From assembly GCA_036501885.1 (NCBI GenBank), contig DASXZM010000041.1, positions 34,905 to 66,904 on the forward strand: 32,000 nt of DNA, in the 5' to 3' direction. The notes beneath the pieces were generated by a model. That model was not told where the DNA came from and ran no database searches. It was given only the letters and a program-made list of their open reading frames with translations. Below are positions 3,501 through 30,251 of the stretch, one piece after another. The DNA is from Kofleriaceae bacterium (GTDB lineage: Bacteria; Myxococcota_A; Polyangia; Haliangiales; Haliangiaceae). Each line of letters opens with the position of its first letter. Position 1 is the first letter of the stretch. A program made the translations under genes and the position numbers.

Positions 3501-3545
3501 AACTCCGTCGCCGTCTCCAGCCAGACGTTCACCAGCGCCCAATGA
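537..3545 (+). CDS. Penicillin acylase family (S45 Ntn-hydrolase) lipoprotein with an N-terminal Ig-like extension; possible acyl-amide/AHL acylase
   Basis: Strong SD. Lipobox LIVVFGSC. Family motifs AAQGYLQARDRLFPMEFLRH, the autoprocessing/nucleophile site GSNNWVVS, and ANDPHLGLQYPPLF. Residues ~25-105 (ITWSVTGGGSI...TATAGDLTATVMI) look like a bacterial Ig-like module. Confidence 0.88.
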   Translation: MRARSVATACLIVVFGSCGGSNNNSSLTITPIGSGGALAVYGPTDFKANLVNSDAPITWSVTGGGSITTMAGDHTTFVPPAGSAAETLTATAGDLTATVMIESSPMVLTPGSIPGLTAPVIVQYDAQDIPHVNCAQAIDCLAAQGYLQARDRLFPMEFLRHVARSNLSEMIGVAGLSQDIQIRNLFVTRAGHRVEEDLAAAMDPNTRGLLDAFLGGINAYIAQLQATQGDQPLGGEYLQLPYRLTANDLQPWTEVDTLALARLEQFQLSEGIGEESAYGTFVAAYGPTSDKTTAWIRAASPTTEQAHTLAATGFTSSVARKPLAVKPSAPSMGPWGSQLAQVRDSMLALDGRLRPLRTSVGSNNWVVSAMMSATGVSMVANDPHLGLQYPPLFHLVTMTSQNPSDNLNLAGGSFPGIPGALVGRGANVGWGVTVVGYDVTDLYLETLDENPATCPAIAASVPCVKFNGASVTPVVVPETYTVRVGPGSAGLVDSKTLSLGSSAPPPAVLVVPEHGPIISIDIAGGTAVSARWTGQEGNTQDLKGIWGLNTATDVDSAMASLTYFSTGAQNFVLADDQGNIAYDPHALVPVRNFADARTAQFSPTTPPWFPLPGDGTPNVEWGDGSDNCAAGSGVAAACWIPDAQLPQGKNPAKGYFFTANADPTNTGSNGGGVSDGNSPLSFPPYLSFDWDDSSGFRATRIDQMLHDTISANGTVGLADMEAMQSDHYSRPGKAFVDIIDTMTLTDPNALMAKTRLDGWAQAGYDCPSGLIGSDPNESPIDPTQAVVTNSSDCFLFHTFLRTLLSNVFIDDLTPIGAQLDDNVVQAVKAMLYMLTSDPTNSFCNDAGGASHTCAEQVETALAQAYVQLTTSVSSVADDWVWGRVHTLTTVPLLALVTNGYEPGPFARPGGLFTVDVGNPSQETSSGLSFPYASGGNVRHISLMNAATPVVKMQLPGPERDGPDTVIGPDLLGQWVLNEYFDFAFGDQINSVAVSSQTFTSAQ

Positions 3546-3556: not shown

Positions 3557-6500
3557 ATGTCTCGCCTTCTCTTTGTCGCGGCGCCCGCTCTCGCCGTGCT
3601 CGCCATGGCGGCGTGCAAGCCGGACCTGCCCGACACGCCTCCACAGACGTTCGTGATCGCCGAGTTCGATCCGACGACCAGCTCGATCCCGCTGCCGAAC
3701 GATCTCGTGCTGCTCCAGCCGGCGAACTCGCTGTGCACGCCGCCCGCACCGGACGGCTCGCCCGCGTGCGCCGAGGCCGAGCTGATCCAGTCGTTCAAGG
3801 ACGCCAAGGGCTTCCCGAGCGATCAGGCAGTCGACGTCACGGTCGACTTCACCGAGACCATGTTCGACGCGAACGGAAGCGCGACCCAGAGCGCGCCCGA
3901 TCTCGATCTCACCACGTTCACGCCGAGCACGTTCTTCGTCGAGGGCATGAACGCCGGCGGCACCGGCGAGATCGAGGTCGAGCCGATCCAGGCCGGCGAC
4001 TACGTGAAGCTCGCCGATCACGGCGAGCTCACGATCCACAACAAGGGCGACCAGCCGTGGCCGCCCGGCGAGTACGCCGTGCTGATCCGCGGCGGCGCCA
4101 ACGGCGTGATGACGACCGGCAAGCTGCCGGTCGAGCCGTCGCAGATCTTCTACCTGCTCGAGCAGAACGTCGATCTGTCGAACCCGAAGAACAACGGCCT
4201 GCTCAAGGCCGAGCTCGGCTCGCAAGAAGCCGCGAACAGCGAAGGCCTGCAACTCGACGAGGTCGAGGCGCTGTGGAGCCAGTTCGCGTTCCCGACGGCC
4301 GACACGCGCTTCCCGCACGAAGAGCTCGCCGTCCTCACCACGTTCGCGATCCAGCCGACGGTGACGAACGTGTCGATCGATCCGGCGCGCAGCCTCGTGC
4401 CGCTGCCGATCGATCTGTTGCGCGATCCGAACACCGGCAAGCTCAGCGCGCTCGCCGCGTGCACGCTCGCCGGCAGCTCGCTCGACGCGAACGGCAACTG
4501 CCCGAGCGCGGCGGCCGCCGGCTTCGAGGCGCTCGACGGCTTCTCGACGACGGGCGCGATCCTGGGGCCCACCTCGGATCTGATCGACGGCACGTCGATC
4601 AACGGCAGCGACTTGCAGCTGTGGGACCTCAGCGACGTCAACAACCCGGTGCAGGTCGATCCGAATACCCTGATCCTCGAGCCGTGCGAGTTCACGTCGG
4701 GCTGCAACCAGCCGACCGAGCTGTCGCCGGTGATCGCGATCCAGCCCGCCGGCGCGACCGCGAGCGACCCGACGAGCGTGTTCCGCACCAAGCCGCTCAA
4801 GGACGCGACCGACTACGCGGTCGTGATGACGACCGGCATCAAGGACAAGGCCGGCAACCCGATCGGCCCCGGCACCGTCGCGAAGATCCTGCACTTCACG
4901 AATCCGGTCTACGTGAACGGCGCCTCGCAGCTCACCGGCATCGACAACGGGACCGCGCAGTCGGTCGAGGCCATGCGGCTCGAGCTCGCGCCGCTGTTCG
5001 CGAAGCTGTCGGCGGCGGGCACCGACTTCTCGAAGATCGGCATCGCGTACACGTTCCACACGCAGACGATCTTGTCGCAGGCGAACCAGCTCGCGGCGCT
5101 GACGTACGATCCGCCGCTCAACGTCTCCAACAACGAGATCGGCGCCATCACGAACGAGACGGCAACGACGGCGTTCCAACGATTCGGCGTCGACGCGACG
5201 CAAGTGCCGCTGGCCTCGATCGGGAGCGTGTTCGAGTTCGACATCGATACGTTGAACGCGCTCGATCCCCTCACCGGCGCGTTCCTTTCCGATCCGACCA
5301 CCGCGGCGACTGAGCAGATCCATGTGCTGATGGCGCTGCCCGCTCCCACGAACCCCAACATCCCGGCGTGCACCGGTGCGGCCGCCCCGCTCGGCGCGCT
5401 CGGCCTCAAATGCGCGCCGCTGATGATCTTCCGCCATGGCCTCGGCGGAGGTCGCGCCGACATGCTCACGGTCGCCAACACGTTCACCGCGGCCGGCATG
5501 GTCGTGGTGGCGATCGATGCGGCCAAGCACGGCGATCGCTCGTTCTGCACGCCGAACGGGACGCCCGGTCAATGCGCGGCTGACACCGCCACTGCGACGA
5601 CCTGTACGACACAGCTGCCGTCGGGTGCGCAGGGCGACATGAACCCGCCCGGCACGTGTCCGCCCGTACTGCCCAACAATCCGACTGGCTTCACGTACCT
5701 GCCCGTGAGCTCCTCGTGTCTCGCGAACCCGATCGCGTGTGGCTGGGACGGCAATGAAGGCATCCCAGCGGTCGCCGGTAACTACCTCATCACCTCGAAC
5801 TTCTTCCGCACGCGCGACACGCTTCGCCAGGATCTGATCGACGAAGGCGATCTGACGCGCGTCGTCGCATTCGCGCCGCCAGCGAACTACGCGGGAGGAA
5901 ACACGTTGTTCGATACAATGTCGACGACCCTCGGCTACGTCGTCGACCCGACGACGATCTACTTCTCGGGCCAATCGCTCGGCTCGATCTCGGGCGCCGC
6001 GGACGTCGCGACGAACCCGCGCATCACGAAGGCTGGATTCAACGTCGGCGGCGGCACCGTCGTCGACGTGTTCACGAATTCGCCGGCGTTTATCAGCGAG
6101 ACCGACGCGCTGCTCGCGAGCCTCGGCATCACGCCGGGCACGTCGGCGTACTTGCAGTTCCTCGTGGTCGCCAAGACCGTGCTCGACCCGGCCGATCCGA
6201 TCAACTTCGTCGGCCACATCACGCAGGATCCGCTGCCGAGCCTGTTGCCCGGCGTGAATCCGCCGTCGCGCGTGGCGCTGTCGCAAGCCGCGTACTGCGA
6301 TCAGACCGTACCGAACCCGTGGAACTTCATCTACGCGAACAACCTCGGCGCGAACCCGCTGCCGCCGACCGGCGCGCCGGGCACGCTGCCCGCGGTGTTC
6401 GAGCTGTTCGTCGGCCCGAGCTACGCGACCGATCCGAGCTGCGCGGCCTCCGGTGTCGAGCACGGGTTCATCACCGACTGGTCGAACGCCACCATCACCT

Positions 6501-6568
6501 CGAACGCGCAGACCGACATCGCGAACTTCGTCATGCTCGGCACCGTGCCGCCGTCGATCCAGGAATAA
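3557..6568 (+). CDS. Secreted alpha/beta-hydrolase lipoprotein, Pla-1/cef-type extracellular lipase-like
   Basis: ATG 3557 with GAGAGGA upstream, 11 nt after the acylase stop. Lipobox LAMAAC. N-terminal lipase-type motifs IPLPNDLVLL and VPLPIDLL...FEALDGFSTTG. Hydrolase core FRHGLGGGRADML...VVAIDAAKHGDRS and nucleophile elbow GQSLGS. The track ORF 2357..6568 starts far upstream in an Arg-rich overlap with the acylase. Confidence 0.8.
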   Translation: MSRLLFVAAPALAVLAMAACKPDLPDTPPQTFVIAEFDPTTSSIPLPNDLVLLQPANSLCTPPAPDGSPACAEAELIQSFKDAKGFPSDQAVDVTVDFTETMFDANGSATQSAPDLDLTTFTPSTFFVEGMNAGGTGEIEVEPIQAGDYVKLADHGELTIHNKGDQPWPPGEYAVLIRGGANGVMTTGKLPVEPSQIFYLLEQNVDLSNPKNNGLLKAELGSQEAANSEGLQLDEVEALWSQFAFPTADTRFPHEELAVLTTFAIQPTVTNVSIDPARSLVPLPIDLLRDPNTGKLSALAACTLAGSSLDANGNCPSAAAAGFEALDGFSTTGAILGPTSDLIDGTSINGSDLQLWDLSDVNNPVQVDPNTLILEPCEFTSGCNQPTELSPVIAIQPAGATASDPTSVFRTKPLKDATDYAVVMTTGIKDKAGNPIGPGTVAKILHFTNPVYVNGASQLTGIDNGTAQSVEAMRLELAPLFAKLSAAGTDFSKIGIAYTFHTQTILSQANQLAALTYDPPLNVSNNEIGAITNETATTAFQRFGVDATQVPLASIGSVFEFDIDTLNALDPLTGAFLSDPTTAATEQIHVLMALPAPTNPNIPACTGAAAPLGALGLKCAPLMIFRHGLGGGRADMLTVANTFTAAGMVVVAIDAAKHGDRSFCTPNGTPGQCAADTATATTCTTQLPSGAQGDMNPPGTCPPVLPNNPTGFTYLPVSSSCLANPIACGWDGNEGIPAVAGNYLITSNFFRTRDTLRQDLIDEGDLTRVVAFAPPANYAGGNTLFDTMSTTLGYVVDPTTIYFSGQSLGSISGAADVATNPRITKAGFNVGGGTVVDVFTNSPAFISETDALLASLGITPGTSAYLQFLVVAKTVLDPADPINFVGHITQDPLPSLLPGVNPPSRVALSQAAYCDQTVPNPWNFIYANNLGANPLPPTGAPGTLPAVFELFVGPSYATDPSCAASGVEHGFITDWSNATITSNAQTDIANFVMLGTVPPSIQE

Positions 6569-6572: not shown

Positions 6573-7829
6573 ATGCGCAAGCTTATCCTCGCAACGTCGC
6601 TCCTGGCCCCCGCCGCCGCGTATGCCGGTGGCTACGCCATTCCCGACGAGAACGCGCGCACGCTGGCGCTCTCGCAATCCGATCTCGCCGATCAAACCGG
6701 CGCCGAGGCGATCCTGATCAACCCGGCGGGTATGGCGGGTCAGATCGGCCTCGACGTGTCGGCGAGCCTCGAGTGGCTCGACAACCGCACCGATTATTCG
6801 GATCCGAACCTCGGCACGTCGAGCCTGCTCTCGCACGCCAACACGCCGCCCGCCGGTGCGGTGTCCTTCGGCGACGTGCTGCCGAACGACATGATGTGGG
6901 CCGCGGGCATCGGCTTCCACGTTCCGTACGGCGGCGCGCTGAACTGGCCCGACGGCTGGCAGGGCCAGGAATACGTCCGGACCGTCGACCAAAAGATCTA
7001 TCAGATGACGGCCGGCGCGGCGTTCCAGCCGCTGCCGTACCTCAGCATCGGCGCCGCGTACGTGCGGTACCAGGTCACCGAAGAGCTGCACCAGGCGGTC
7101 AACTTCGTCGATCATTACGGCGATGCCGGCATCGGTATGTCGGGCGGCTCGAGCTCGTTCATGCTCGCGGCGCAGGGCAAGCTGCCGTGGATCCCGCTGC
7201 AGCTCGCGGTGTCGTTCAAGTACAAGGGCTCGACGCAGATCGACGGCAACGCGCACTTCACCGACGTGCCGCCGGCGTTCTCGACCACGCTGCAAGACCA
7301 GAGCGTCACCGAGCAGATCGCGATCCCGTCGGAGATTCACGCCGGCGCGGCCTACGAGGTGATTCCAAATCTCAGCGTGATGTTCACGTTCACGAACGAG
7401 TTCTGGAGCATCTATCACAGCGACACGTTCGTCGGCAGCACGGGCTTTACGGTGAACGTCCCGCGCGACTACAACGACGCGCAGGTCTACCGGCTCGGCG
7501 CCGAGTGGGCGCACGTGCCGTTCTGGTCGCCGCTGACGTTGCGGATCGGCGCGCTGCGCAGCATCTCGCAGCAGCCGACGGCGACGTTGTCGCCCTCGCT
7601 CACCGACGGCGACAGCTGGGCGGTCTCGGTCGGCGCGGGCTACGAGATCATTCCCGACCTGCGGATCGACCTCGGCTACCAGCACGCGTTCTTCGACACC
7701 GTGACCGCGAGCGGCATCGACACGCTGCCCGGCACGTACAAGACGCAGGTCGACTTGCTCTCGCTCGGCGTGAACTGGCGCTTCGATCTGCTCGGCCGCA
7801 CGAGCTCGAACGACCCGACGCAGAAGTGA
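6573..7829 (+). CDS. Outer-membrane transport protein, OMPP1/FadL/TodX family (hydrophobic-compound channel)
   Basis: ATG 6573 lies 4 nt after the lipase stop. Signal peptide MRKLILATSLLAPAAAYA. FadL-like N-terminal hatch GGYAIPDENARTLALSQSDLA...ILINPAGMAG. Alternating beta-strand pattern ending LSLGVNWRF. Confidence 0.82.
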   Translation: MRKLILATSLLAPAAAYAGGYAIPDENARTLALSQSDLADQTGAEAILINPAGMAGQIGLDVSASLEWLDNRTDYSDPNLGTSSLLSHANTPPAGAVSFGDVLPNDMMWAAGIGFHVPYGGALNWPDGWQGQEYVRTVDQKIYQMTAGAAFQPLPYLSIGAAYVRYQVTEELHQAVNFVDHYGDAGIGMSGGSSSFMLAAQGKLPWIPLQLAVSFKYKGSTQIDGNAHFTDVPPAFSTTLQDQSVTEQIAIPSEIHAGAAYEVIPNLSVMFTFTNEFWSIYHSDTFVGSTGFTVNVPRDYNDAQVYRLGAEWAHVPFWSPLTLRIGALRSISQQPTATLSPSLTDGDSWAVSVGAGYEIIPDLRIDLGYQHAFFDTVTASGIDTLPGTYKTQVDLLSLGVNWRFDLLGRTSSNDPTQK

Positions 7830-7923: not shown

Positions 7924-8763
7924 ATGGCGCGCAGCTCGCACACGGCGAGCGCGATGCGCGCGCTGTGGTTCCTAGTCCTCTTCACCGCATGCACGTCGAA
8001 CGTGCCCGGCGATTCGGACGAGTCGGTCGGTTTCGGCGATCAAGTCGACGAGGGCTGGACGAGCGTCGGTTACGGCGTCGAGTACCAGCAACAAAACGCG
8101 GGCAGCGCATTCTTGATCGTCTACGGCGGCTACCAGGCGGAGATCTCGTGGTCGTCGGCGTGGGCGACCGAGCTCGTCGACGTGAAGCTCGGCAGCGCCG
8201 GCATCGGCCGCGTCTACGCGGTGCAGGGCCCGGAAGATCCGGGCTACGACGCGAAGGAGATCGGCAACTCGAAGCTGCGCGCGCAGCTCGCGACGATCGA
8301 CGACGGCGTCTCGCCGATCATCGTCGTCGCGCACTCGAGCGGCGTGTTCGTCGCGCACGAGCTGCTCGATCAGCTCTACAACGCCGGGCAAGACGACGTC
8401 CTCGCGCGCATCTCGTACGCGAACCTCGACGGCGGCGGCACCGGGCTCACCGACGACATCGTCGCCGACCTCGGCCAGATCACGTTCGCGTATGCACACG
8501 ACCCGACGCTCGACGACGGCTACTCCGAGAACCACGACAGCGCGATCGATCTCGGCGAGGAGTACGCACCGAAGGCGACGACATTCGAGGTCACGGTGCC
8601 GAACACCGGCTGCGACGACGGCGCCGGCTGGTGCCTGCACGACGTGCTGGTCACGCATCGCCCGCACGATCCGACGTTCTACGATCTCGCCGACGACTAC
8701 ACCGACTTCGACAATCGCACGCCGACGACCGAGTACCTGGATCAGTTCCTGTCGACGAAGTAA
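7924..8763 (+). CDS. Hypothetical lipoprotein with a possible alpha/beta-hydrolase-like serine elbow
   Basis: Signal peptide plus lipobox (M)ARSSHTASAMRALWFLVLFTAC. High GC3. IIVVAHSSGVFVAHEL resembles an Sm-x-Ser-x-Sm nucleophile elbow. The start is ambiguous (7918 GTG, 7924 ATG or 7954 ATG). Confidence 0.6.
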   Translation: MARSSHTASAMRALWFLVLFTACTSNVPGDSDESVGFGDQVDEGWTSVGYGVEYQQQNAGSAFLIVYGGYQAEISWSSAWATELVDVKLGSAGIGRVYAVQGPEDPGYDAKEIGNSKLRAQLATIDDGVSPIIVVAHSSGVFVAHELLDQLYNAGQDDVLARISYANLDGGGTGLTDDIVADLGQITFAYAHDPTLDDGYSENHDSAIDLGEEYAPKATTFEVTVPNTGCDDGAGWCLHDVLVTHRPHDPTFYDLADDYTDFDNRTPTTEYLDQFLSTK

Positions 8764-10253
8764 TCGTCGGGCTGCGTGGCGTCGGGCCCGTCGGGCACGT
8801 GCAGCGCGCGCGCGAGCAGCGTGCCGATCGCCGCGACCGCGAGGTTGAGCGCGACGGCGAGCAGGCCCGCGTAGATCGAGACGTCGCCGAGCTTGAACGC
8901 GGAGCCGCCGAAGTGCGCGCGGTGCGTGGTCGCGTTCGGCGTGAGGTAGAGCATCGTGAAGCCGGCCGCCATGCCGATGACGAGGCCGCCGATCAGCGCG
9001 GACTTGTGGAACCAGCGTGTGAACAGGCCGAGCCCGACGACGGGAAACGTCTGCAGGATGATCACGCCGCCGATCAGTTGCAGGTCGATCGAGAACTGCG
9101 GCGCGATCAGCACGATGCAGACGAGCGCGCCGAGCTTGACGAACAACGAGGCGAGCTTCGAGACGCGCGCCTGGTCGGCGTGGCTCGCGTCTTTCGAGAT
9201 GTACTCGACGTAGATGTTGCGCGTGAACAAGTTCGCGGCCGCGATCGACATGATCGCGGCGGGCACGAGCGCGCCGATGCCGATCGCCGCGAACGCCACG
9301 CCGGCGAACCAGTGCGGGAACATCTTCTCGAACAGCGCCGGCACGATCGTGTTCGGATCGTGATCGACCGGCGAGATCTTCGCGGCGATCGCCATGTAGC
9401 CGAGCAACGCGATCAGGCCGAGCAGCAGCGAATACGCCGGCAGCGTGGCCATGTTGCGCTTGATGACGTCGCGATTCTTGCTCGCGAGCACCGCGGTCGC
9501 CGAGTGCGGATACAAGAACAGCGCGAACGAGCTGCCGAGCGCGAGCGAGATGAACGGCAGCTGCTGGCCGTCGCCGAGCGTCAGCTTGCCGTGAAACTTA
9601 TCGGCGGCGGCGTCGAAGATGTTCCCCCAGCCGCCGAGCTCGTACGGAATGTAGACGACCGCCGCGATGATCACGATGTAGATCAGCCCGTCCTTGACGA
9701 ACGCGATCAGCGCCGGCGCGCGCAAGCCGGATTGATACGTGTACGCGGCGAGGATCGCGAACGCGAGGATCAGCGGCAGATCGCCGGCGAGTCCCATCTG
9801 CTTGAGCACCGCCTCGATGCCGACGAGCTGCAGCGCGATGTATGGCATCGTCGCGACGATCCCGGTGATCGCGACGAGCAGCGCGAGCGTCGGCGAACCG
9901 AACCGTGCACGCACGAAGTCGGCGGGCGTCACGAACCCGTGCTTGTGCGAGACCGACCACAGCCGGATCAGCACGAGGAACACGAGCGGATACGTCGCGA
10001 CGGTGTACGGCATCGCGAAGAAGCCGTACGCGCCCGCCGCGTAGAGCAGCGCCGGCACCGCGACGAACGTGTACGCGGTGTAGAGATCGCCGCCGATCAA
10101 GAACCACGTGACCCACGCGCCGAAGCTGCGGCCGCCGAGGCCCCACTCGTCGAGGTGATCCATCGTCGCCGGCCGCCGCCACTTCGCAGCGACAAAGCCG
10201 ACGCCCGCCACGACGACGAACAGCGTGGTGAAGACGACGAGCTCGACCGTCAT
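8742..10253 (-). CDS. Sodium:solute symporter family permease, MctP-like monocarboxylate transporter type
   Basis: Start MTVELVVFTTLFVVVAGVGFVAAKWRR. SSF-like DEWGLGGRSFGAWVTWFLIGGDLYTAYTF. About 13 hydrophobic segments. Its ATG overlaps the DUF3311 stop (ATGA, 10250-10253). Confidence 0.88.
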   Translation of the reverse strand: MTVELVVFTTLFVVVAGVGFVAAKWRRPATMDHLDEWGLGGRSFGAWVTWFLIGGDLYTAYTFVAVPALLYAAGAYGFFAMPYTVATYPLVFLVLIRLWSVSHKHGFVTPADFVRARFGSPTLALLVAITGIVATMPYIALQLVGIEAVLKQMGLAGDLPLILAFAILAAYTYQSGLRAPALIAFVKDGLIYIVIIAAVVYIPYELGGWGNIFDAAADKFHGKLTLGDGQQLPFISLALGSSFALFLYPHSATAVLASKNRDVIKRNMATLPAYSLLLGLIALLGYMAIAAKISPVDHDPNTIVPALFEKMFPHWFAGVAFAAIGIGALVPAAIMSIAAANLFTRNIYVEYISKDASHADQARVSKLASLFVKLGALVCIVLIAPQFSIDLQLIGGVIILQTFPVVGLGLFTRWFHKSALIGGLVIGMAAGFTMLYLTPNATTHRAHFGGSAFKLGDVSIYAGLLAVALNLAVAAIGTLLARALHVPDGPDATQPDDYFVDRN

Positions 10254-10441
10254 CGCTTGCGGGTCTTTCGATACACGATGCCGGCGCACAGCGCGCCGAG
10301 CCCGACGAACGACAGCTGCAGCCAGTAGAAGCGCGGGAACCCGAACAAGCGCGGCTCGGCGCCGTTATAGATGAACGGCAGCATCGGCACGACGATCGGC
10401 ACGAGCAGTAGCCAGTTCCACGGGCTGCGGTCGCGATTCAT
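10250..10441 (-). CDS. DUF3311-like small membrane protein (usual partner of MctP-type symporters)
   Basis: 63 aa: MNRDRSPWNWLLLVPIVVPMLPFIYNGAEPRLFGFPRFYWLQLSFVGLGALCAGIVYRKTRKR. Two TM segments. Sits directly upstream of the symporter, with ATGA overlaps at both ends. Confidence 0.75.
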   Translation of the reverse strand: MNRDRSPWNWLLLVPIVVPMLPFIYNGAEPRLFGFPRFYWLQLSFVGLGALCAGIVYRKTRKR

Positions 10442-10968
10442 GACAGCGCCTTCGCGGTCTCGGCCCACGCGATGTCGCCGAGCTCGGCGATCGGGTGCAC
10501 GCGCGCGCAGCTCGGGCATGCCCGCGGCGACGCGTTGAACGCATGCACCGCGGCCAGATACGCGGCCTGCACGATGACGCCCGGCGCGATGTCGATCGAA
10601 TGCACGAGCGCGCCGCACGCGCAGAACCACGCGACGGCCTCGCGCACGCCGGGCTCGGCCTTGAGCCGCACTTGCACGTTCTCGCCGTCGGGGAACAAGC
10701 GGCTCGGCATGCACGCCGGGACGTACACCGCGTCACCGGGCACGAGCGACATGGCCGCCGCGCCGGCGAGCTCGATGCGACCGGTGCCCGACATCTGGAT
10801 GATCACCTGATCGGCCTCGCTCACCAGGAAGAACGGCTGCGCGCAGCGGTTGCGCGACAGATGCGGCATCGGATCGGTGCCGGGTTGGCCGACGGGAAAA
10901 TCGTCGTACGAGCCCCACGCGTCGCGCGCGTCCTTGAACACGTTGAGCGTCTTCTTACGTTCGATCAC
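10438..10968 (-). CDS. 3-hydroxyanthranilate 3,4-dioxygenase-like cupin ('cupin B', 176 aa); catalytic metal ligands apparently not conserved
   Basis: The GTG start at 10968 overlaps the upstream stop (GTGA). The C-terminal half AWFCACGALVHSIDI...RACPSCARVHP aligns closely with my remembered Ralstonia 3-HAO sequence (WYCDACGHLVHRVEV...RRCPHCGQVHP). The length matches the 3-HAO family. Confidence 0.78.
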   Translation of the reverse strand: MIERKKTLNVFKDARDAWGSYDDFPVGQPGTDPMPHLSRNRCAQPFFLVSEADQVIIQMSGTGRIELAGAAAMSLVPGDAVYVPACMPSRLFPDGENVQVRLKAEPGVREAVAWFCACGALVHSIDIAPGVIVQAAYLAAVHAFNASPRACPSCARVHPIAELGDIAWAETAKALS

Positions 10969-11618
10969 TGCGACGCCTTCTCGATGTCGGCGCGCGCGCG
11001 GTTCGCGAGGTCCACGTATTGCGCGTAGCGCCGCCAGCCCATCAACTCGCTCGGGAATCGCGGCTGCTCGGCATCGCAGCTCGCGCAGCGTCGAGCGTCT
11101 GCGTTGTACGCGTCGGCGGCATCCGCGTAGAAGCGAATGTTCGCGAGCTCGGGGTAGTGCGCGTGCGCCGGCGCCTGCCAGACGTCGCGATCCATGCGGA
11201 ACACGACCTCGTTGCATTTCGGGCAGCGCAGGATGAACGCCTCGTTCTGCGGCCCGCGCTCCTTCATGCGGATGATGATGAGCGAGATCTGATAGTGCTT
11301 GCCCTCGCTGCCGGCCGGCTGGCGGATGAACGTCGTCACGCCGTGCGTGCCCTGCTGCAGGTACAGCTGGCCGGTCGCGATGAGCCCGCCCTCACTCGCC
11401 ATGCACAGGATCACTTCGGGTACGTCGTTGTAGTGATAGAAGTGCACGCGCGGCGTGTCGGGCAACGTGAGCGACAGCGCCGCCGTCGGCACGATGTCGC
11501 CGGGTCCGACGTACGGGAACAGCGGAATCTGCTCGAGCATCCCCTGGTGGCCCGTCATGTGCTCGAACACGTTGACCTTGATCGGCCGCTTGGTCGGCTC
11601 GCGACCGAACCAGCTCAT
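10965..11618 (-). CDS. Divergent 3-HAO-like cupin ('cupin A', 217 aa) retaining an H-x5-E metal motif
   Basis: ATG 11618 overlaps the upstream stop (ATGA). FYHYNDVPEVILCMAS aligns with DYHDDPLEEFFYQLRG of 3-HAO. LIIIRMKERGPQNEAFILRCPKCNEVVFR and ARRCASCDAEQPRFP match the family's C-terminal Cys-pair region. Confidence 0.72.
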   Translation of the reverse strand: MSWFGREPTKRPIKVNVFEHMTGHQGMLEQIPLFPYVGPGDIVPTAALSLTLPDTPRVHFYHYNDVPEVILCMASEGGLIATGQLYLQQGTHGVTTFIRQPAGSEGKHYQISLIIIRMKERGPQNEAFILRCPKCNEVVFRMDRDVWQAPAHAHYPELANIRFYADAADAYNADARRCASCDAEQPRFPSELMGWRRYAQYVDLANRARADIEKASQ

Positions 11619-11887
11619 CCGCCGACCATCTTCACGAGATCGGCGTAACTCGCCGCGAACTGCTGCTCCTTGATCTCGTCGAATGGAAAGCCGATTCGCT
11701 CGAGCTCGCGCGCGACCGCCTGTTCGGAGTCGGCGTCGTAGATGTTGATGATGAGCCCGTCGGCCATGTTCGCGTAGCACTGCACGAACCGGGCAAACTT
11801 GCTCTCCAGCACGGCTGGAACGCTGTGTTGAAAATCTTCCGGGCTCACGCCCGGCGCGTGGTGCACGACGATGTAACGAGGCACCAC
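11615..11887 (-). CDS. Small DUF4242 (SCO4226-like, ferredoxin-fold, metal-binding) protein
   Basis: 90 aa from GTG 11887 (or 11884): VVPRYIVVHHAPGVSPEDFQ...GLIINIYDADSEQAVARELERIGFPFDEIKE. This resembles the 'MPKYMV.H...G..yC..eA.s.eav....e..G.p.deI.e' pattern I recall for DUF4242. The rest of track ORF 11615..12718 is Arg-rich antisense to the kinase. Confidence 0.5.
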   Translation of the reverse strand: MVPRYIVVHHAPGVSPEDFQHSVPAVLESKFARFVQCYANMADGLIINIYDADSEQAVARELERIGFPFDEIKEQQFAASYADLVKMVGG

Positions 11888-11923
11888 CGAATCGTAGTCG
11901 AACTCGGTATCATTGGGCGGCGG

Positions 11924-13999
11924 GTGCAAGACCGATCGAACGACCGGTTGCTGGTGCTGTCGGAGGCGTTTCGCGCGTTCGCCGAAGGCACGACGGAACC
12001 CGTCGGCTTGCTCGCCACGGTCGCGCGCAAGCTCACCGAGTTGATCGGCGACGCGTGCGTGATCTCGCTCGCCGACGCCGACGGCATCTGGCTCGAGCCG
12101 AGCGCCGCGTTCGCCGCCGACGACAGCCATGCGGCGATGCTGCGTGCCGCGCTCGCGAATCGCGACGGTCGCAGCGGTACCGGCAACGCGGTGCACGCCG
12201 TGCGGACCGGCGAGTCGGTGTTGATCGCGTCGATCGATCCGGCCGAGCTCGCGACGCGCGCCGAGCCCGCGTTCGCCGATGCGGTGCGCACGCTCGGCGT
12301 CCGCAGCTACCTGTCGGTACCGCTGCAGGTGCGCGACCGCCGCATCGGCGTCGCGGCGCTGCTGCGTTATCTGCCGGCAAGCGCGCCGTTCGACGAGCTC
12401 GATCGAACGCTCGCCGCGACGATCGCCGATCACGCCGCACTCGCGATCGCGAACGCGCAGCTCTTGGATTCGGTGCAGCGCGAGCTCGCGGAGCGCGAGA
12501 AGGCCGAGGACCGCGCGAAGGCATTCGTCGCGCTCGTCGAGGCGAGCACCGACATGATCGGCATGGCCGACTTCGACGGCCGCATCTTGTTCTTGAACGC
12601 GGCCGGGCGCGCGCTGATCGGCATCGAGCCCGACTACGACGTGCGCGCCGACACGCTCGGCGACTATCACGCGCCTGCGGAGCTGAGCACCGTGCTCGAG
12701 CGCCGCCGCCAAGGTCATTGGAGCGGCGAGACCGAGTTACTCCACCAAGACAACGGCGAGCGCATCGTCACGAAGGCGAGTGGCTTCCTCGTGCGCGACG
12801 TCGACGGCAAGCCGCTGTGCTACGGCACCGTGCAGCACGATCTGCGCACGATGAAGCGCCTGGAGGCCGAGCTCCGGCAGGCTCAGAAGATGGAGGCACT
12901 CGGGCGCCTCGCCGGCGGCATCGCGCACGACTTCAACAACCTGTTGACGGTGATCTTGAGCTACGCGGCGATGCTCGGGCGCGCGTTGCCCAAAGACAGC
13001 CGCGCCGCCGACGACGTTCACCAGATCGATCGCGCCGCACAGCGCGCCGCCGAGCTGACGCGCCAGCTGCTCGCGTTCAGCCGGCGCCAGGTGCTCGAGC
13101 CCAAGGCGCTCGATCTCGGCGAAGCGCTGCAGGCGATGGCCACGATGATCCGCCGGCTGATCGGCGAGGACATCGAGCTGCGCATCCTCACCGCGGGCAG
13201 CACCGGCGCCGTGATGGTCGACGCGGGTCAGCTCGAGCAGGTCGTGATCAACCTCGTCGTCAATGCGCGCGATGCGATGCAAGGCGGCGGCGTGCTCACG
13301 ATCGAGACGTCGCGCGTGCAGCTCGTGCGCGGCGAGCATGGCCTCGCGCCCGGCTGGTACCACAGCGTCGCGATCACCGATACCGGCACCGGCATCGACG
13401 AGCCGACGCGCGCGCACGTGTTCGATCCGTTCTTCACGACGAAGGAGCACGGCAAGGGCACCGGCCTTGGCCTATCGACCGTGATGGGCATCGTCGAGCA
13501 GAGCGGCGGCTACGTCACCGTCGACAGCGAGCTCGGCCGCGGCTCGACGTTCCACGTCTTTCTGCCCGTCACCGAGCGCGTGCCGGCCGTGCCGCTCGCC
13601 GTGGCGCGCACCGCGACGCCGATCCGCGGCACGCAGCGCATCCTCGTCGTCGAGGACGAAGCGCCGGTGCGCATGCTCATCCGCGAGGTCCTGAGCCAGG
13701 CCGGCTACGACGTGATCGACGCCGTCGACGGCGCGCATGCGCTCGACGTGGCCGCCGCGACCGAAGGCGAGATCGATCTGCTCTTGACCGACGTCATCAT
13801 GCCCAAGCTCAGCGGTCGCGAGCTCGCGCGGCGGTTCGCGCAGCTGCGCCCGACCTCGCGCGTGCTGTACATGTCCGGCTACGCCGATGACAAGCTCGGT
13901 CATCATGGCTTGCTCGATCCCGACGTCGCGCTGATCCAGAAGCCGCTCACGCCCGAGATGCTGCTCCGCCGCGTCCGCGCGCTCCTCGGCGACGGTTAA
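11924..13999 (+). CDS. Hybrid sensor histidine kinase (GAF-PAS-HisKA-HATPase_c-receiver)
   Basis: GAF-like region LLATVARKLTELIGDACVISL...YLSVPLQVRDRRIGVAAL. PAS STDMIGMADFDGRILFLNAAGRALIG. H-box LAGGIAHDFNNLL. N-box VVNARDAM. G-boxes DTGTGID and GKGTGLGLS. Receiver ILVVEDE...LLLTDVIMPKLSG. The start is uncertain: GTG 11924, TTG ~11953, or the track's 11825, which would overlap the divergent gene. Confidence 0.88.
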   Translation: MQDRSNDRLLVLSEAFRAFAEGTTEPVGLLATVARKLTELIGDACVISLADADGIWLEPSAAFAADDSHAAMLRAALANRDGRSGTGNAVHAVRTGESVLIASIDPAELATRAEPAFADAVRTLGVRSYLSVPLQVRDRRIGVAALLRYLPASAPFDELDRTLAATIADHAALAIANAQLLDSVQRELAEREKAEDRAKAFVALVEASTDMIGMADFDGRILFLNAAGRALIGIEPDYDVRADTLGDYHAPAELSTVLERRRQGHWSGETELLHQDNGERIVTKASGFLVRDVDGKPLCYGTVQHDLRTMKRLEAELRQAQKMEALGRLAGGIAHDFNNLLTVILSYAAMLGRALPKDSRAADDVHQIDRAAQRAAELTRQLLAFSRRQVLEPKALDLGEALQAMATMIRRLIGEDIELRILTAGSTGAVMVDAGQLEQVVINLVVNARDAMQGGGVLTIETSRVQLVRGEHGLAPGWYHSVAITDTGTGIDEPTRAHVFDPFFTTKEHGKGTGLGLSTVMGIVEQSGGYVTVDSELGRGSTFHVFLPVTERVPAVPLAVARTATPIRGTQRILVVEDEAPVRMLIREVLSQAGYDVIDAVDGAHALDVAAATEGEIDLLLTDVIMPKLSGRELARRFAQLRPTSRVLYMSGYADDKLGHHGLLDPDVALIQKPLTPEMLLRRVRALLGDG

Positions 14000-14157
14000 T
14001 CCCAGAGATCGCCTGTGTTGGTCTCGTCGTGCCACGTGCTCGTGCCACGTGCTCGTGCACGTGCTCGTCCACGATCTTGCTTGCGTTCGAAGATCTCGTT
14101 CGCACGCAGTTCGCGCCTCACGAGGTCAAATCGAAACTGATTCTGCGACGAGATCAT
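13996..14157 (-). CDS. Candidate unannotated 53-aa ORF downstream of the DMT permease gene
   Basis: GGGAG (complement of 14164-14168), then 6 nt, then ATG (14157..14155). Translation: MISSQNQFRFDLVRRELRANEIFERKQDRGRARARARGTSTWHDETNTGDLWD. Its TAA overlaps the kinase TAA (TTAA at 13996-13999). GC3 is only moderate and the ORF spans the tandem repeat, so coding status is doubtful. Confidence 0.3.
   Translation of the reverse strand: MISSQNQFRFDLVRRELRANEIFERKQDRGRARARARGTSTWHDETNTGDLWD
14023..14075. repeat. Tandem ~13-bp direct repeat carrying three CACGTG palindromes
   Basis: GCCACGTGCTCGT (14031-14043), GCCACGTGCTCGT (14044-14056), GCACGTGCTCGT (14057-14068), then a partial CCACG. Flanked upstream by CTCGTCGT. 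Confidence 0.75.
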
Positions 14158-14208
14158 CAGGATCTCCCGAAACGCGGCCCGCAGGCGCGTGCAGGTGCAA
14201 CAACCCCT

Positions 14209-15129
14209 CTAGCGATCTTGCGGTTCCATGTTGGTGTGTTGCGCGATCTGCAGGCTCTTGCGCGCGCCGTTGAGCACGACGAGCGCGAGCAAGATCGCGG
14301 CGCCCGCGTAGAACTTGACGCTCAGCTTCTCGGTTTCGGGATAGAGCAGCGCGCCGAGCACCAACGCGTACACGGTCTCCAAGTTCACGCACACCGCGAT
14401 CGTGAACGGCGACAGCGTGCGCAGCACGATCAGCGCCCACACTTGCGGCACGACGGTGCAGCAAAACGCGAGCACGCCGAGCCACCACAGGTCGGCATGC
14501 GACAGCTGCGACGGCGCGACGTACTCGCCGGGCACGATCACGAACGCGATCGTCACGACCGCGAGCGCCGCGAGCATCTCGTGAAACAAGAGGCGCATCG
14601 GCGGCTCGTGCGGCGCGAGCTTGCCGTTGAGCACGCCGAAGATCGCGCTGAACAGCGCCGAGCCGAAGCCGAGCGCGACACCGAACGGATCGGGATGACC
14701 TTGCAGCTGCACGAGCAGCGCGACGCCGACCACGACGACTCCGCCGATCACGACCTCACCGACGTCGACGCGGCGTCGATACACGATCGGCTCGATCAGC
14801 GCGGTGAAGAACGCGAGCGTCGACAGCGTCAACACCGCGATCGCGATGCCGGCCTGCTTGATCGAGCCGTAGAAGCACAGCCAATGAATGCCGATGAACG
14901 CACCGACCACGGCCGCGCGGCCGAACGACTGCAGCGACGCGCGCAACGGCTCGCGACGTGCCGTCAGGATCACGGCGAGCATCACGGCGACGAACAGGAT
15001 GCGATACCAGACGAGCGGGATCGCGTGGATCGAGATCTGGTGGCCGAGGATCGCGGTGAAGCCCCACAGCAGCACGGTCACGTGAAGCAGCGCGTGCGCG
15101 GCGGGGCGCGAGAGCTGCTTCGATGTCAC
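14209..15129 (-). CDS. DMT superfamily (EamA-like) permease
   Basis: 306 aa with about 10 hydrophobic helices and an EamA-type N-terminus HALLHVTVLLWGFTAILG. The GTG start lies 10 nt after the upstream stop. Confidence 0.82.
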   Translation of the reverse strand: MTSKQLSRPAAHALLHVTVLLWGFTAILGHQISIHAIPLVWYRILFVAVMLAVILTARREPLRASLQSFGRAAVVGAFIGIHWLCFYGSIKQAGIAIAVLTLSTLAFFTALIEPIVYRRRVDVGEVVIGGVVVVGVALLVQLQGHPDPFGVALGFGSALFSAIFGVLNGKLAPHEPPMRLLFHEMLAALAVVTIAFVIVPGEYVAPSQLSHADLWWLGVLAFCCTVVPQVWALIVLRTLSPFTIAVCVNLETVYALVLGALLYPETEKLSVKFYAGAAILLALVVLNGARKSLQIAQHTNMEPQDR

Positions 15130-15783: not shown

Positions 15784-18357
15784 TCAGCCAGCTGCGGAGA
15801 GCGCCCACAACGGGAAGATCCGCAGATACGCGTCGTAGTGGATCGCGCACGTGTGGTTGAACACGCCGGCGATGTGCTCGGCCGGCCACGTGCCGTCGGC
15901 CTGTTGGCGGCGCAGCAAGAACTCGACGCCGCGGCGCACTTCACGGGACTCGGCGCGATCGGCGCGGCACAGCGCCAACAGCGCCCACGACGTCATCACC
16001 GCCTGGCCGGTCTCGGCGTGAATGTAGCGGCGCGCGCGACACGACTCGACGGTCTCGCCCCAGCCGCCGTCCTGCTGTTGATGCGCGATCAAGAACTCGC
16101 ACGCGCGATCGATCGCGCGTTTCGCGCGCGCGTCCTCGGATGCGGCGAGTCCGTTGACCGCGAACCACGTGCCGTACGTGAAGCACACGCCCCACGCGCC
16201 TTCCCACGAGCCGTCGGGCCGCTGCACGTCGAGCAAGTACTGCGCGCCGCGCGCGATCGCGGCCGTGATCGCCGTGCGCAGCACCAGATCGGCGCCCGGC
16301 AGGTAGTTGCGCAGCGCCGTCATGCACGCCGACGTGCACTCGGTGTACGAGCGATCGATCATGATCTCGCCGAACACTTCGGACGGGTTGAAGCGCTCGA
16401 GCCATTTCGGCCCGCGCGTCTTCTCGTACGTGGCCCAGCCGCCGTCGGCGTTCTGCCACGACAGCATGCGCGCGACCGCATCGGCGCGGCGCTCGGATGT
16501 GATCGGCTCGGCGAGCCCGTGCGCGTCGAGCGCGAGCGTCGCCTTGAGTCCTTCGGCGGTGCAATCGGTGATCGGCCAGCCGTGCGGGCGCGTCGAGAAC
16601 GGCCACGCGCCGACGCTGTCGTGCCGGTAGTAGCGCGCGCCGTCGGCCGGTTGCGCGATGATCTGCGCGCCTTCGATGAAGCGCGCGGCGTTCGCGAGCG
16701 TGGCGTGGCTCGCGCGGCCGCTCGCGTGGAGTGCCTGCACCGCGAACGCGGTGTCCCACAGCTCCGACGAGTTGTAGCCCTGCATCTTCACGCCGTCGGG
16801 CGCGCGCCACAGATAATCCGGCATGCGCGCGACGTGCGCTTGCACTTCCGCGCCGCCCGGCTTCGCGTGATGCCAGACCAGCAGGTCGAACAGCTTGTTG
16901 ACCGGACCGATGCAGATGTAGCTCGTCGCGCGATCTTCGAACGCGATGTGATCGAGCAGCATCGCGAGCGCGCGCTCGCGCAGCTTGGCGATCGACGCGC
17001 GCTCGTACACGCCGAGCACGGTGTGGATCGTGGTCAGCCACGCGTCGTGCGGATGATAGAGATCGTCGGCGGCGACGCGGGCACGCGCGCTCGCCCAATC
17101 GATCTGACCGTACGGCTCGTCGTAGATCTCGCCGCGGATCTCGTCGAGCAGCGGGCCGTTGCCGAGCACGGCACGCGCGCCGTACAGATAGCTCATCGGC
17201 AGGTAGACCATGCGCGCGTGGCACCACAGCCGCGACGGATGGAACGGCACCGCCTCCGGCAACAGCCAGAGCTCCGGCGGAACCGGCGCGACGCCGTCGT
17301 AGTCGTAGAGCCCGAGCACCGCGAGAAAAAACTTTCCCCACGACGCCGACGCGAGCGCACCGCCGCGCGGCAGGAACCACGCGCGCGCGTTTGCGAGACG
17401 CTCGTCGCTCTTGGGGAGCCCCAAGAGGCGCAGCGCGACGTAATTCAGAACCGACGTGAAGACGTGCGAGTCGCCCTCGACGTCGAGGCCCCAGCCGCCG
17501 TCGGGGTTCTGGTAGCGCGTGAGGTAGCCGACCATCCCGTCGCGGGTCTCGCGATCGAGCGGAATGCCGACGATGTGGCACGTGCCGACGTACATCGGCA
17601 GCAAGAACAGCGGCCCGCCGTAATCGCCGTGCCACGAGCCGGTCGGAGATTGTGTGGCGGCGAGCACGTCGCATGCGAGATCGATCGCGCGCTCGCGCGA
17701 CGGCAGCGGCGCATCGGCGACGAGCTCGGCCTCTTCCGGCGCCGCGGGTGGCAAGCCGCGACACAGCGCTGCAAAGCCGGCGCGCACCGCGCGATCGTTG
17801 CCCGCGACCAGCCCGGCGAGCCGATTCGCGACCGCATTGGGCGAGATCGCACCGACGAGCGGGCGCAGGCAGCTCTTGCGCAGCGCGGGCTCGCTCGCCG
17901 GGATCGCGAGCACGAAGTCGAGCGCGTGCTTCGCGTCGCGATGCAGTGCCGCGCGGTCGAGCTCGCCCGACAGCACGTTCGCGAACGCATCGGCGCGCGC
18001 CGACAGCTTCGCATGTACGGCCGCGACCGCCGCCGAGTGTCGCGCGAACAGGTGCACGACGAGCCGCACGAACGACTTCGCGAAGCCATCGCCTCGCGCG
18101 GCGGCCGCCACGCAGTCGGCGATCCCGCGCCGTGCGGCGGAGGTTTGCGTCGACAGCCGGCGGAGCAACGCGGCGGTCGGCTCGTCGAGCTTCGCGACAC
18201 GCGCGCGCCAGTCGGCGGGCAACGCGGCGAGCTCGTGCAAGTCGAGGTGTTTGCCGAGCTCGGCGGCGAGCTCGAGCGGCTCGGCGAGCTCTCGCGGCAG
18301 CTCGTCGGTCGCGATCGTGATCGTCGCAGCCACCGGGCGCTGCGCGTGTGCGATCAC
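15784..18357 (-). CDS. osc: Oxidosqualene cyclase, cycloartenol-synthase-type residues, with a long N-terminal extension
   Basis: Near-continuous similarity to eukaryotic lanosterol/cycloartenol synthases: GSWHGDYGGPLFLLPMYV, WGKFFLAVLGLYDYDG, LWCHARMVYLPMSYLYG, MQGYNSSELWDTAFAVQAL, GAWPFSTRPHGWPITDCTAEGLKA (DCTAE, not the DxDDTA of hopene cyclases), NPSEVFGEIMIDRSYTECTS, GSWEGAWGVCFTYGTWF and IAGVFNHTCAIHYDAYLRIFPLWAL. The GTG at 18357 overlaps the SQMO stop (GTGA). Confidence 0.9.
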   Translation of the reverse strand: MIAHAQRPVAATITIATDELPRELAEPLELAAELGKHLDLHELAALPADWRARVAKLDEPTAALLRRLSTQTSAARRGIADCVAAAARGDGFAKSFVRLVVHLFARHSAAVAAVHAKLSARADAFANVLSGELDRAALHRDAKHALDFVLAIPASEPALRKSCLRPLVGAISPNAVANRLAGLVAGNDRAVRAGFAALCRGLPPAAPEEAELVADAPLPSRERAIDLACDVLAATQSPTGSWHGDYGGPLFLLPMYVGTCHIVGIPLDRETRDGMVGYLTRYQNPDGGWGLDVEGDSHVFTSVLNYVALRLLGLPKSDERLANARAWFLPRGGALASASWGKFFLAVLGLYDYDGVAPVPPELWLLPEAVPFHPSRLWCHARMVYLPMSYLYGARAVLGNGPLLDEIRGEIYDEPYGQIDWASARARVAADDLYHPHDAWLTTIHTVLGVYERASIAKLRERALAMLLDHIAFEDRATSYICIGPVNKLFDLLVWHHAKPGGAEVQAHVARMPDYLWRAPDGVKMQGYNSSELWDTAFAVQALHASGRASHATLANAARFIEGAQIIAQPADGARYYRHDSVGAWPFSTRPHGWPITDCTAEGLKATLALDAHGLAEPITSERRADAVARMLSWQNADGGWATYEKTRGPKWLERFNPSEVFGEIMIDRSYTECTSACMTALRNYLPGADLVLRTAITAAIARGAQYLLDVQRPDGSWEGAWGVCFTYGTWFAVNGLAASEDARAKRAIDRACEFLIAHQQQDGGWGETVESCRARRYIHAETGQAVMTSWALLALCRADRAESREVRRGVEFLLRRQQADGTWPAEHIAGVFNHTCAIHYDAYLRIFPLWALSAAG

Positions 18358-27641: not shown

Positions 27642-28184
27642 ATGGGCGATCGGGGCGCGAGCTTCCACGCGCGCGGCAAAGTCACGAAGGCCATCATCCC
27701 GCTCGTCGTGGTCGTGGTTGCCGGCGGCGCGTTGTTCTGGCTGCACTCGCGCGACCGAGACGTTTCGGCCGAGCACGACGCACAACAGCAGGCGACCGCC
27801 GCGATGGCCGACGTCAATGCGACGCAGGCGACGATCGGCAGCCGCTTGAAGCAGGCGACGCTCGACGTCGCGACGACCGGGCTCTTCTCGGTCGCGAAGG
27901 CGGGCGATCTCATCAAGAACGAGCTGATGCCGATCATCGACGACTACCTCGGCAAGCTCGAGCGCGCGCTCGCGATGTCGCAGGCGTACCTCGCGTTTCA
28001 CCCGGAGCTCGACGACCAGGCGCGCACGGCGCTCGCGAGCATGGCGACGCGCGCGAAGCAGGTCCACATCGCGCGCGATCGCCTCGCCGATCTCGCGGAG
28101 CGCGCGTCGAAGGGCACGCTCTCCGTCGACGATCTCGGTGCGCAGCTCGCGAACGCCGCGAAGGCGCTGGTCACTCCACCGTGA
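27642..28184 (+). CDS. Hypothetical single-pass membrane protein
   Basis: One TM segment (AIIPLVVVVVAGGALFWL) followed by an Ala/Leu-rich helical region. High GC3. No family recognised. Confidence 0.6.
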   Translation: MGDRGASFHARGKVTKAIIPLVVVVVAGGALFWLHSRDRDVSAEHDAQQQATAAMADVNATQATIGSRLKQATLDVATTGLFSVAKAGDLIKNELMPIIDDYLGKLERALAMSQAYLAFHPELDDQARTALASMATRAKQVHIARDRLADLAERASKGTLSVDDLGAQLANAAKALVTPP

Positions 28185-30186: not shown

Positions 30187-30251
30187 TTGCGAGATACTTC
30201 ATTGTTGCGTTGCACAAATCGAGGGGACGTCGCAAGCTGCTCTCGTCCACG

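Follow-up and report, generated by a model that had tools for sequence, protein, structure and literature searches.

3-Hydroxyanthranilate 3,4-dioxygenase (HAO) is a homodimer. Two cupins encoded side by side in a Kofleriaceae contig, named CupA and CupB in this study, have the same cupin fold and the same C-terminal cysteine-rich, rubredoxin-like segment as the bacterial HAO/NbaC of Cupriavidus metallidurans (PDB 1YFU). They lie in the stretch of DNA analysed here (contig DASXZM010000041.1, positions 34,905 to 66,904; 32,000 nucleotides, hereafter the window), where they are the second and third genes of a five-gene operon, g1 to g5. Like HAO, CupA has an H-x5-E pair with a nearby histidine, and the motifs round both CxxC knuckles are homologous. 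However, identity to HAO is only ~20% and both cupins score far under all curated HAO thresholds. Whereas HAO has two identical subunits, the system here has two different ones, or a fusion of them, and one of the two lacks the metal ligands. Unlike HAO, the cupins have no kynurenine or nitrobenzoate context, and they have a DUF4242 protein as partner.

The logic of one iron-bearing and one iron-free subunit is shared with PnpCD/HqdAB (hydroquinone 1,2-dioxygenase) and AmnAB (2-aminophenol 1,6-dioxygenase). In structure, the CupB model weakly matches the small subunits of PnpCD and of hydroquinone dioxygenase (E ~5e-4, TM-score ~0.35), but the catalytic subunit PnpD is much larger and not HAO-like, and neither system is related in sequence to the cupins described here. 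AmnAB has a different fold, of the LigB type, and neither PnpCD/HqdAB nor AmnAB has a Cys4 site or a DUF4242 partner. A third comparison is with the Rieske oxygenases and VanAB, whose electron-transfer partners are found next to, or fused to, distant CupA/CupB relatives. Where Rieske oxygenases have a Rieske/non-heme-iron alpha subunit as terminal component, the system here has a Cys4-bearing cupin, and the trio in the window, unlike these systems, has no Rieske- or VanB-type electron-transfer partner nearby. g1 shares its Pfam family and its size with the founding DUF4242 member, SCO4226 of Streptomyces coelicolor (PDB 4OI3); their alignment spans residues 20-76 with an E-value of only 0.0075, and while g1 is always coupled to CupA/CupB, no such context has been described for SCO4226. 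As for the transporter genes, MctP of Rhizobium leguminosarum has a small DUF3311 partner, and a DUF3311 gene likewise directly precedes g5; unlike the Rhizobium pair, the pair here is translationally coupled to an oxygenase-like module.

In the literature on DUF4242/SCO4226, on HAO heterodimers and the rubredoxin-like site, and on cupin plus Rieske ring cleavage, we found no description of the CupA/CupB family. This agrees with the first-pass annotation of the window, made from sequence without database searches, which knew of no characterised system with this layout. A riboflavin-catabolism cluster with a P450, a Rieske protein and a cupin (PMC12746152) was considered and rejected: its cupin, LumY, is a hydratase and the cluster is unrelated. 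We argue, with a confidence only a little above even, that CupA and CupB make up a two-subunit iron oxygenase of the HAO superfamily, which would act on an acid other than 3-hydroxyanthranilate, use the DUF4242 protein as an accessory, be coupled at this locus to an MctP importer and probably be controlled by a GAF kinase.

The operon and its two unlike cupins

The five genes g1-g2(CupA)-g3(CupB)-g4-g5 lie head to tail on the minus strand (8742-11887):

11615..11884, minus strand: g1, DUF4242 (SCO4226-like) protein, 89 residues; alternative GTG start at 11887
11618-11615, minus strand: g1/g2 junction ATGA, the g1 stop overlapping the g2 start by 4 nucleotides (nt)
10965..11618, minus strand: g2 (CupA), HAO-superfamily cupin, 217 residues, putative catalytic subunit
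10968-10965, minus strand: g2/g3 junction GTGA, 4-nt stop/start overlap
10438..10968, minus strand: g3 (CupB), degenerate paralogue without metal ligands, 176 residues, probable partner subunit
10441-10438, minus strand: g3/g4 junction ATGA, 4-nt stop/start overlap
10250..10441, minus strand: g4, DUF3311 small membrane protein (Pfam PF11755), 63 residues
10253-10250, minus strand: g4/g5 junction ATGA, 4-nt stop/start overlap
8742..10253, minus strand: g5, MctP-type monocarboxylate permease of the SSS family (NF046076), 503 residues

The window is part of a 314-kb soil-metagenome contig of identical sequence (JGI 3300036780, Ga0376652_0000028), its GC content is 65-75%, and the nearest genome is a Kofleriaceae metagenome-assembled genome (MAG) whose CupA is 99% identical. 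Reading the minus strand reproduced exactly the four 4-nt junctions given in the first-pass annotation, and the public gene calls on Ga0376652_0000028 have the identical four overlaps. Four consecutive overlaps support the single five-gene operon proposed there, and they probably imply translational coupling. To derive stoichiometric co-expression from them, as was done, is an over-reading; such overlaps are common on this contig, where 2 of the ~8 same-strand junctions outside the operon also have them (squalene epoxidase/cyclase, 18354-18357; AddB/AddA, 24294-24297). A 4-nt overlap is thus an ordinary operon junction on this contig, and four in a row mark an operon and nothing unusual. No sigma-70-like promoter or credible terminator was found in or around the operon (8500-12300), and no Rfam family was found in 8000-14500. 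Profile hidden Markov model searches placed g1, g4 and g5 above the cut-offs for DUF4242, DUF3311 and SSF/MctP, as had been expected, but neither cupin passes as 3-HAO.

CupA matches no family in Pfam or NCBIfam, above threshold or at all, and its score against the HAO model NF009763 is 12 bits (cut-off 220). Its relationship to HAO comes from profile comparison. The CupA family profile aligned by hhalign to HAO 1yfu with a probability of 96.9% (E 1.4e-10), and when the profile of the wide CupA family was compared with the PDB, HAO was the only significant relative. In this alignment, H62 and E68 of CupA fall on H51 and E57 of HAO, the first two Fe(II) ligand positions, and the near-invariant H92 aligns 2-3 residues away from H95. 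Among 68 CupA sequences from clusters at 50% identity, F60, H62, N64, E68, R117 and the four cysteines C132, C135, C178 and C181 are invariant; H92 is 98% conserved, and H92, Q124 and E126 are each conserved in at least 97%. The cysteines form a Cys4 site, C132-x2-C135...C178-x2-C181, as in bacterial HAO enzymes. The residues of HAO that would mark its substrate are a different matter: R47 is replaced by V58 and E110 by I116 (Gly and Gln, respectively, in the wider family), and R99 aligns with a variable, non-conserved loop. As R47, R99 and E110 are not kept, 3-hydroxyanthranilate is an unlikely substrate of CupA.

For CupB, too, nothing in Pfam or NCBIfam exceeded threshold, and there were weak matches to Cupin_2 and HAO only (NF009763, 23.2 bits against a cut-off of 220; TIGR03037, 14.8 bits against 145.95). 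Neither CupA nor CupB gave a Pfam 3-HAO match at E<=1. A phmmer search of CupB against the PDB returned HAO alone, over the C-terminal cysteine-rich part. The AlphaFold 2 (AF2) model of CupB has a mean predicted local distance difference test score (pLDDT) of 79, and the top 21 Foldseek matches to it in the PDB are HAO chains (E 9e-8 to 1e-4, best TM-score ~0.6). By hhalign, CupB matches HAO 1yfu, whose sequence had been verified before use, with a probability of 98.3%, and CupA and CupB match each other as paralogues with 97%. At the Fe ligand positions of HAO, CupB has L48, Q54 and a deletion at H95. R90, aligned with R99 of HAO, is the only substrate residue of HAO that it keeps. Its cysteine pattern, CxC...CxxC, is lost in some fused relatives. 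For all its missing ligands, CupB is extremely conserved, with the first 45 residues almost invariant among close relatives. The view that the cupins are relatives of 3-HAO thus holds at the level of fold and profile (hhalign 97-98%, Foldseek), though the relationship is remote. The first-pass annotation had treated the two alike; both are HAO relatives, but a metal triad, with H92 as its putative third member, remains only in CupA.

The assignment of g1 to DUF4242 is confirmed, with 34.3 bits against Pfam PF14026 (SCO4226-like/DUF4242; cut-off 28.5) over profile positions 1-75 of 76. An automatic gene caller placed its start at TTG 11929. Since orthologues begin MPRY, the start is probably the second GTG, 11884, giving 89 residues, rather than 11887. 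That g1 is of a metal-binding type, as the first-pass annotation had it, holds less well, resting as it does on SCO4226, whose Ni-1 ligands are not kept in g1: D43, S46 and H76 (numbering of PMC4186839) align with N, D and K. SCO4226 itself binds nickel weakly (dissociation constant ~10 uM), and the surface sites involved are not conserved outside Streptomyces (PMC4186839). Against the NCBIfam equivalog Ni_bind_SCO4226 (NF033706), g1 scores 19.9 bits (cut-off 125). With the score this low, the Ni-1 ligands replaced and the SCO4226 sites restricted to Streptomyces, a nickel role for g1 was dropped. There is no conserved cysteine or histidine cluster in g1, in which conservation is limited to H9 and a number of structural residues, and none of the 432 collected proteins has g1 fused to another domain. 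We treat g1 as a cofactor-less accessory protein, a predicted role only. Loosely comparable is EthD, a small protein that the Eth cytochrome P450 system requires.

Both transporter genes had been named correctly, each product scoring above its curated cut-off. g4 reaches 41.9 bits against PF11755 (cut-off 30). g5 reaches 707.6 bits against the MctP equivalog NF046076 (cut-off 625), its residues 5-480 covering profile positions 2-479 of 481, and matches Pfam SSF with an E-value of 3e-20; as an MctP-type permease it would be predicted to carry lactate, pyruvate, alanine and similar monocarboxylates. The 3' end of g5 overlaps that of a convergent gene by 22 nt (8742-8763).

A conserved three-gene module and its distant relatives

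Conservation was examined in loci whose CupB is at least 55% identical; a scan of genomes and another of metagenomes gave 96 independent ones. CupA lies directly upstream of CupB in 76 of 77 loci, with an overlapping or very short junction in almost all, and CupA is itself preceded by a g1 homologue in 62 of 63. By contrast, the DUF3311/MctP pair follows CupB in 5 of 75 loci, all of them closer relatives of the window, and the genes outside the trio vary among relatives (ATP synthase, kinases, dehydrogenases). As the trio is near-universal and its other neighbours vary, the conserved entity is the three-gene module g1-CupA-CupB, which was extended to five genes recently and locally. Of the block that the first-pass annotation had proposed to follow across genomes, therefore, g1-CupA-CupB recurs nearly everywhere and the five genes together do not.

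The trio is found in Polyangia (Kofleriaceae, Haliangiales, Polyangiaceae, Byssovorax and Minicystis rosea DSM 24000, in the last at about 6.255 Mb of CP016211.1) and in two actinobacterial MAGs. The latter trios (L032, 2125-3680; L033, 1097-2645), with CupA 57-59% identical, come from short contigs assigned to Pseudonocardiaceae and Mycobacterium; either Actinobacteria acquired them by horizontal transfer or the contigs were mis-binned. Near the trio, neither the window nor five long Polyangia contigs have a gene for a ferredoxin or reductase. Likewise, no gene of the kynurenine or 2-nitrobenzoate pathways (ACMSD, kynureninase, AMS dehydrogenase) was found in the 32-kb window, where the first-pass annotation had noted their absence, or in five long related contigs.

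Upstream of g1, and divergent from it, lies a kinase gene:

11885..11923: divergent intergenic region between the g1 and kinase starts, 39 nt
11924..13999, plus strand: hybrid histidine kinase, GAF-HisKA-HATPase-REC (Pfam domains from the contig gene calls)
14209-15129, minus strand: EamA/DMT transporter, convergent with the kinase

A GAF hybrid kinase stands head-to-head with g1, within 120 nt, in 16 of 54 loci, mostly of Kofleriaceae/Haliangiales, and a spacing of 20-40 nt is conserved across genomes (L005-L009, L014, L015, L018, L030). With only 20-40 nt between the two starts, the g1 and kinase promoters must overlap coding regions, or the transcripts must be leaderless. The divergent kinase probably regulates the module. 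The order EamA-kinase-trio recurs in L012, L014, L015, L018, L037, L047 and L050.

More distant members came from a HMMER scan of 1.84 billion cluster representatives, which returned 163 relatives, each a cluster at 50% identity. Some are single polypeptides in which a CupB-like domain is followed by a CupA-like domain (P0263, P0264, P0275, P0306, P0310, P0346), and others have an additional C-terminal Rieske domain (P0334, P0331, P0404). Such CupB-CupA fusions occur in Burkholderiales, Rhizobiales and other metagenomic lineages. Within them the cysteines of the CupA domain are invariant and those of the CupB domain are sometimes lost. In some cluster members (P0428, 809 residues), the M24 peptidase/creatinase-like gene upstream is fused to CupB-CupA as well, which could be an assembly or gene-calling read-through. 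That the two proteins are fused in distant relatives argues for a heteromer, and the simplest reading would be that a CupA-CupB heteromer arose from a duplicated HAO-like homodimer. The neighbourhoods of these relatives are as follows:

Rhizobiales: TetR regulator, then divergently the fusion, Rieske ferredoxin, TAXI-type binding protein, MFS transporter and porin
Rhizobiales, upstream of the fusion: MBL hydrolase, FAA hydrolase and ABC importer
Burkholderiales MAG (L042): BphA4-type ferredoxin reductase, then divergently the fusion, Rieske ferredoxin, DctP, DctQM and TAXI protein
Metagenome contig: unfused CupA and CupB, then FAA hydrolase, TAXI protein, P450, SDR, FAD ring hydroxylase and a second FAA hydrolase
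Same contig, flanks: IclR regulators
Sphingobium sp. AntQ-1, plasmid pANTQ-1: binding protein, CupA-like, CupB-like and PDR/VanB reductase (pair and reductase: sphantq_RS22755, RS22750 and, for the reductase, RS22745)
Phaeobacter gallaeciensis, plasmid pGal_C110 (L117): the pair among aromatic-catabolic genes, with an SCP2 protein before it
Relatives at 44-51% identity: a luciferase-like monooxygenase gene in the place of g1
L040 and L041: a g1-like gene accompanying the fusion

Two themes recur independently in these relatives, namely carboxylate importers and electron-transfer partners. A PF16868 (NMT1_3/TAXI-type) solute-binding protein gene is found with CupA/CupB in all four metagenomic distant contexts examined (L038, L040, L042 and the P0410 contig), and on the Phaeobacter plasmid a TAXI binding protein gene precedes the pair by ~3.4 kb. 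L040 and L041, which carry the fusions P0275 and P0397, also have a second, unfused CupA-CupB pair beside a TAXI binding protein. With TRAP, TAXI and MFS importers next to distant relatives, the proposal of an uptake-plus-oxygenation module is plausible, but the MctP pair itself accompanies only 5 of 75 loci. The electron-transfer partners, for their part, suggest that the invariant Cys4 site may accept electrons, at least in the distant branches. On pANTQ-1 (L116, 116486-120518), nadC lies ~2 kb upstream of the CupA-like, CupB-like and PDR-reductase genes and is divergent from them, with insertion sequence elements near; it is possibly a hint of pyridine-carboxylate chemistry, or else a coincidence. 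The published multi-omics study of Sphingobium AntQ-1 does not cover the CupA-CupB region.

Oxygenase, sensor or nickel module

We suggest that CupA would be the catalytic subunit, with a mononuclear non-heme Fe(II) at H62/E68/H92 and a rubredoxin-like Cys4 site, and that CupB, a duplicated copy that is strongly constrained in spite of having no ligands, would pair with CupA where HAO has its second, identical subunit. The alpha/beta protein g1 could serve these two as an effector, in product processing or in substrate handling, and would need neither nickel nor another cofactor. The enzyme would oxidise or cleave an organic acid other than 3-hydroxyanthranilate. In the Kofleriaceae sub-lineage the module appears to have been welded to the DUF3311-MctP importer, so that the substrate, or a precursor of it, would be taken up and oxidised by the products of one transcript, probably under the control of the divergent GAF hybrid kinase. 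HAO-type iron chemistry is very probably at work, though in proteins that are not members of any curated HAO family. An oxidative role would also fit the neighbours of distant members that we counted for it: Rieske ferredoxin with or without a reductase, the fused Rieske domain, PDR/VanB reductase, FAA hydrolases, FAD ring hydroxylase, P450 and IclR.

Several observations weigh against this oxygenase reading. Gene structure, homology, ligand pattern, synteny and fusions are shown, but for every member of the family iron binding, the heteromer, oxygenase chemistry, the substrate class and the role of g1 are predictions. The AF2 model of CupA, built from a shallow 19-sequence alignment, has a pLDDT of 49 and no usable fold; because the model is so poor, H92 as the third ligand rests on its conservation and on an alignment offset by 2-3 residues. 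CupA is unusually conserved (72-92% identical across orders), and the Polyangia trio has no catabolic, ferredoxin or reductase neighbour; high conservation and a bare context fit a housekeeping or signalling function as well as they fit catabolism. The transporter link may be a recent, lineage-specific juxtaposition, and in one locus that has it (L006) a gap of ~500 nt separates the transporter pair from CupB. Furthermore, the known substrates of R. leguminosarum MctP are reportedly small aliphatic acids, not aromatics.

One rival reading is a highly divergent but true heteromeric 3-hydroxyanthranilate 3,4-dioxygenase, serving the conversion of tryptophan to quinolinate for NAD metabolism in Polyangia. 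HAO is the closest relative in fold and profile, many CupB orthologues are labelled HAO by JGI, the strong conservation and stand-alone context resemble those of a housekeeping gene, and the distant CupA-CupB pair of pANTQ-1 lies near nadC. We nevertheless consider this improbable, given that CupB and CupA reach 23.2 and 12 of the 220 bits set for NF009763 and have no Pfam 3-HAO match, that equivalents of R47, R99 and E110 are absent from CupA, and that no kynurenine-pathway gene occurs in the window or the five long related contigs. Somewhat more credit, although it too is unlikely, may be given to an oxygenase that depends on electrons (of the monooxygenase, demethylase or hydroxylase type) instead of a ring-cleaving dioxygenase, in which CupA would have a true rubredoxin Cys4 and the redox partners would be encoded elsewhere. 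Rieske ferredoxins adjoin distant relatives, a BphA4-type reductase is present in L042, Rieske domains are fused in P0334, P0331 and P0404, a PDR/VanB reductase follows the Sphingobium pair, and the CupA Cys4 is invariant in all 68 sequences while the cysteines of CupB are dispensable. Set against these is the trio itself, with no ferredoxin or reductase gene near it in the window and the five long Polyangia contigs. Moreover, ferredoxins may merely re-reduce the oxidised catalytic iron of extradiol dioxygenases, as XylT does.

In a further alternative, a sensor or regulator in place of a metabolic enzyme, CupA, CupB and g1 could form a complex that binds a ligand, a metal or O2 and signals via adjacent kinases. 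The head-to-head GAF hybrid kinase at 20-40 nt (in 16 of 54 loci), the Ser/Thr or histidine kinases that follow directly in Minicystis and further Polyangia, the very high conservation of CupA and the constraint on a ligand-less CupB would all be in line with a sensor. The kinase is, however, absent from 38 of the 54 loci, and adjacency to a kinase is weak evidence in myxobacterial genomes, which are crowded with kinases. The catalytic-type triad is invariant family-wide and relatives stand in plainly catabolic clusters, so we give a sensor or regulator little credence. Least probable by far is a nickel-handling module, in which g1 would bind nickel or pass it on to cupins that, like acireductone dioxygenase or quercetinase, depend on it. 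The Pfam family of g1 is named after the nickel-binding SCO4226, but g1 falls short of the equivalog (19.9 against 125 bits), has N, D and K for the Ni-1 ligands, and is related to a protein that binds nickel weakly (Kd ~10 uM) at surface sites found only in Streptomyces (PMC4186839); CupA, moreover, has what is probably the HAO-type 2-His-1-Glu ligand set.

Returning to the two-subunit oxygenase that we favour, it is conceivable, though we regard it as a tentative idea and would sooner doubt it, that CupA/CupB is a new oxygenase class, heteromeric or fused, with one pseudo-subunit and a working Cys4 electron entry fed by Rieske ferredoxins or PDR reductases in Proteobacteria. The Polyangia trio, DUF4242 partner included, would then be a derived and highly conserved branch acting on a common cellular or environmental acid, and the rubredoxin-like site of bacterial HAO would be a relic of an electron-entry ancestry. 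In any case, the electron-transfer partners of distant members are a testable lead on the purpose of the rubredoxin-like site in HAO-type cupins, and the family shows how, within the HAO lineage, a subunit was duplicated and a catalytic site then lost. The family has no useful database annotation: no Pfam or NCBIfam model matches it, and its members are named "hypothetical protein" or carry an automatic guess. It is sharply defined, nonetheless, as 163 clusters among 1.84 billion representatives, is under strong selection, and is present in the cultured, tractable strains Minicystis rosea DSM 24000, Phaeobacter gallaeciensis DSM 26640 and Sphingobium sp. AntQ-1. Its practical value lies in those distant members that stand in aromatic or heteroaromatic catabolic clusters without an assigned key oxygenase step.

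Other genes of the window

The genes on either side of the operon and its divergent kinase are:

965-3545: penicillin-amidase-family gene
3557-6568: 1003-residue protein of no family, upstream of the FadL/Toluene_X gene
6573-7829: FadL/Toluene_X outer-membrane channel, preceding the 279-residue gene
7924-8763, plus strand: 279-residue protein of no family, convergent with g5
15784-18357, minus strand: squalene/oxidosqualene cyclase (SQHop_cyclase_N/C), in 4-nt overlap with the epoxidase
18354-19745, minus strand: squalene epoxidase (Pfam SE/FAD_binding_3)
21118-27626, plus strand: AddB-like (PDDEXK_1) and AddA-like (UvrD helicase plus nuclease) genes, joined by a 4-nt overlap
28171-29502, minus strand: GH5 cellulase
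30210-31379, plus strand: polyhydroxybutyrate (PHB) depolymerase

A link between the operon and sterols was considered and dropped, as adjacency to the epoxidase and cyclase is limited to the three closest genomes (L005-L007). The two genes themselves (15784-19745) constitute a sterol-type pair in a Kofleriaceae contig.

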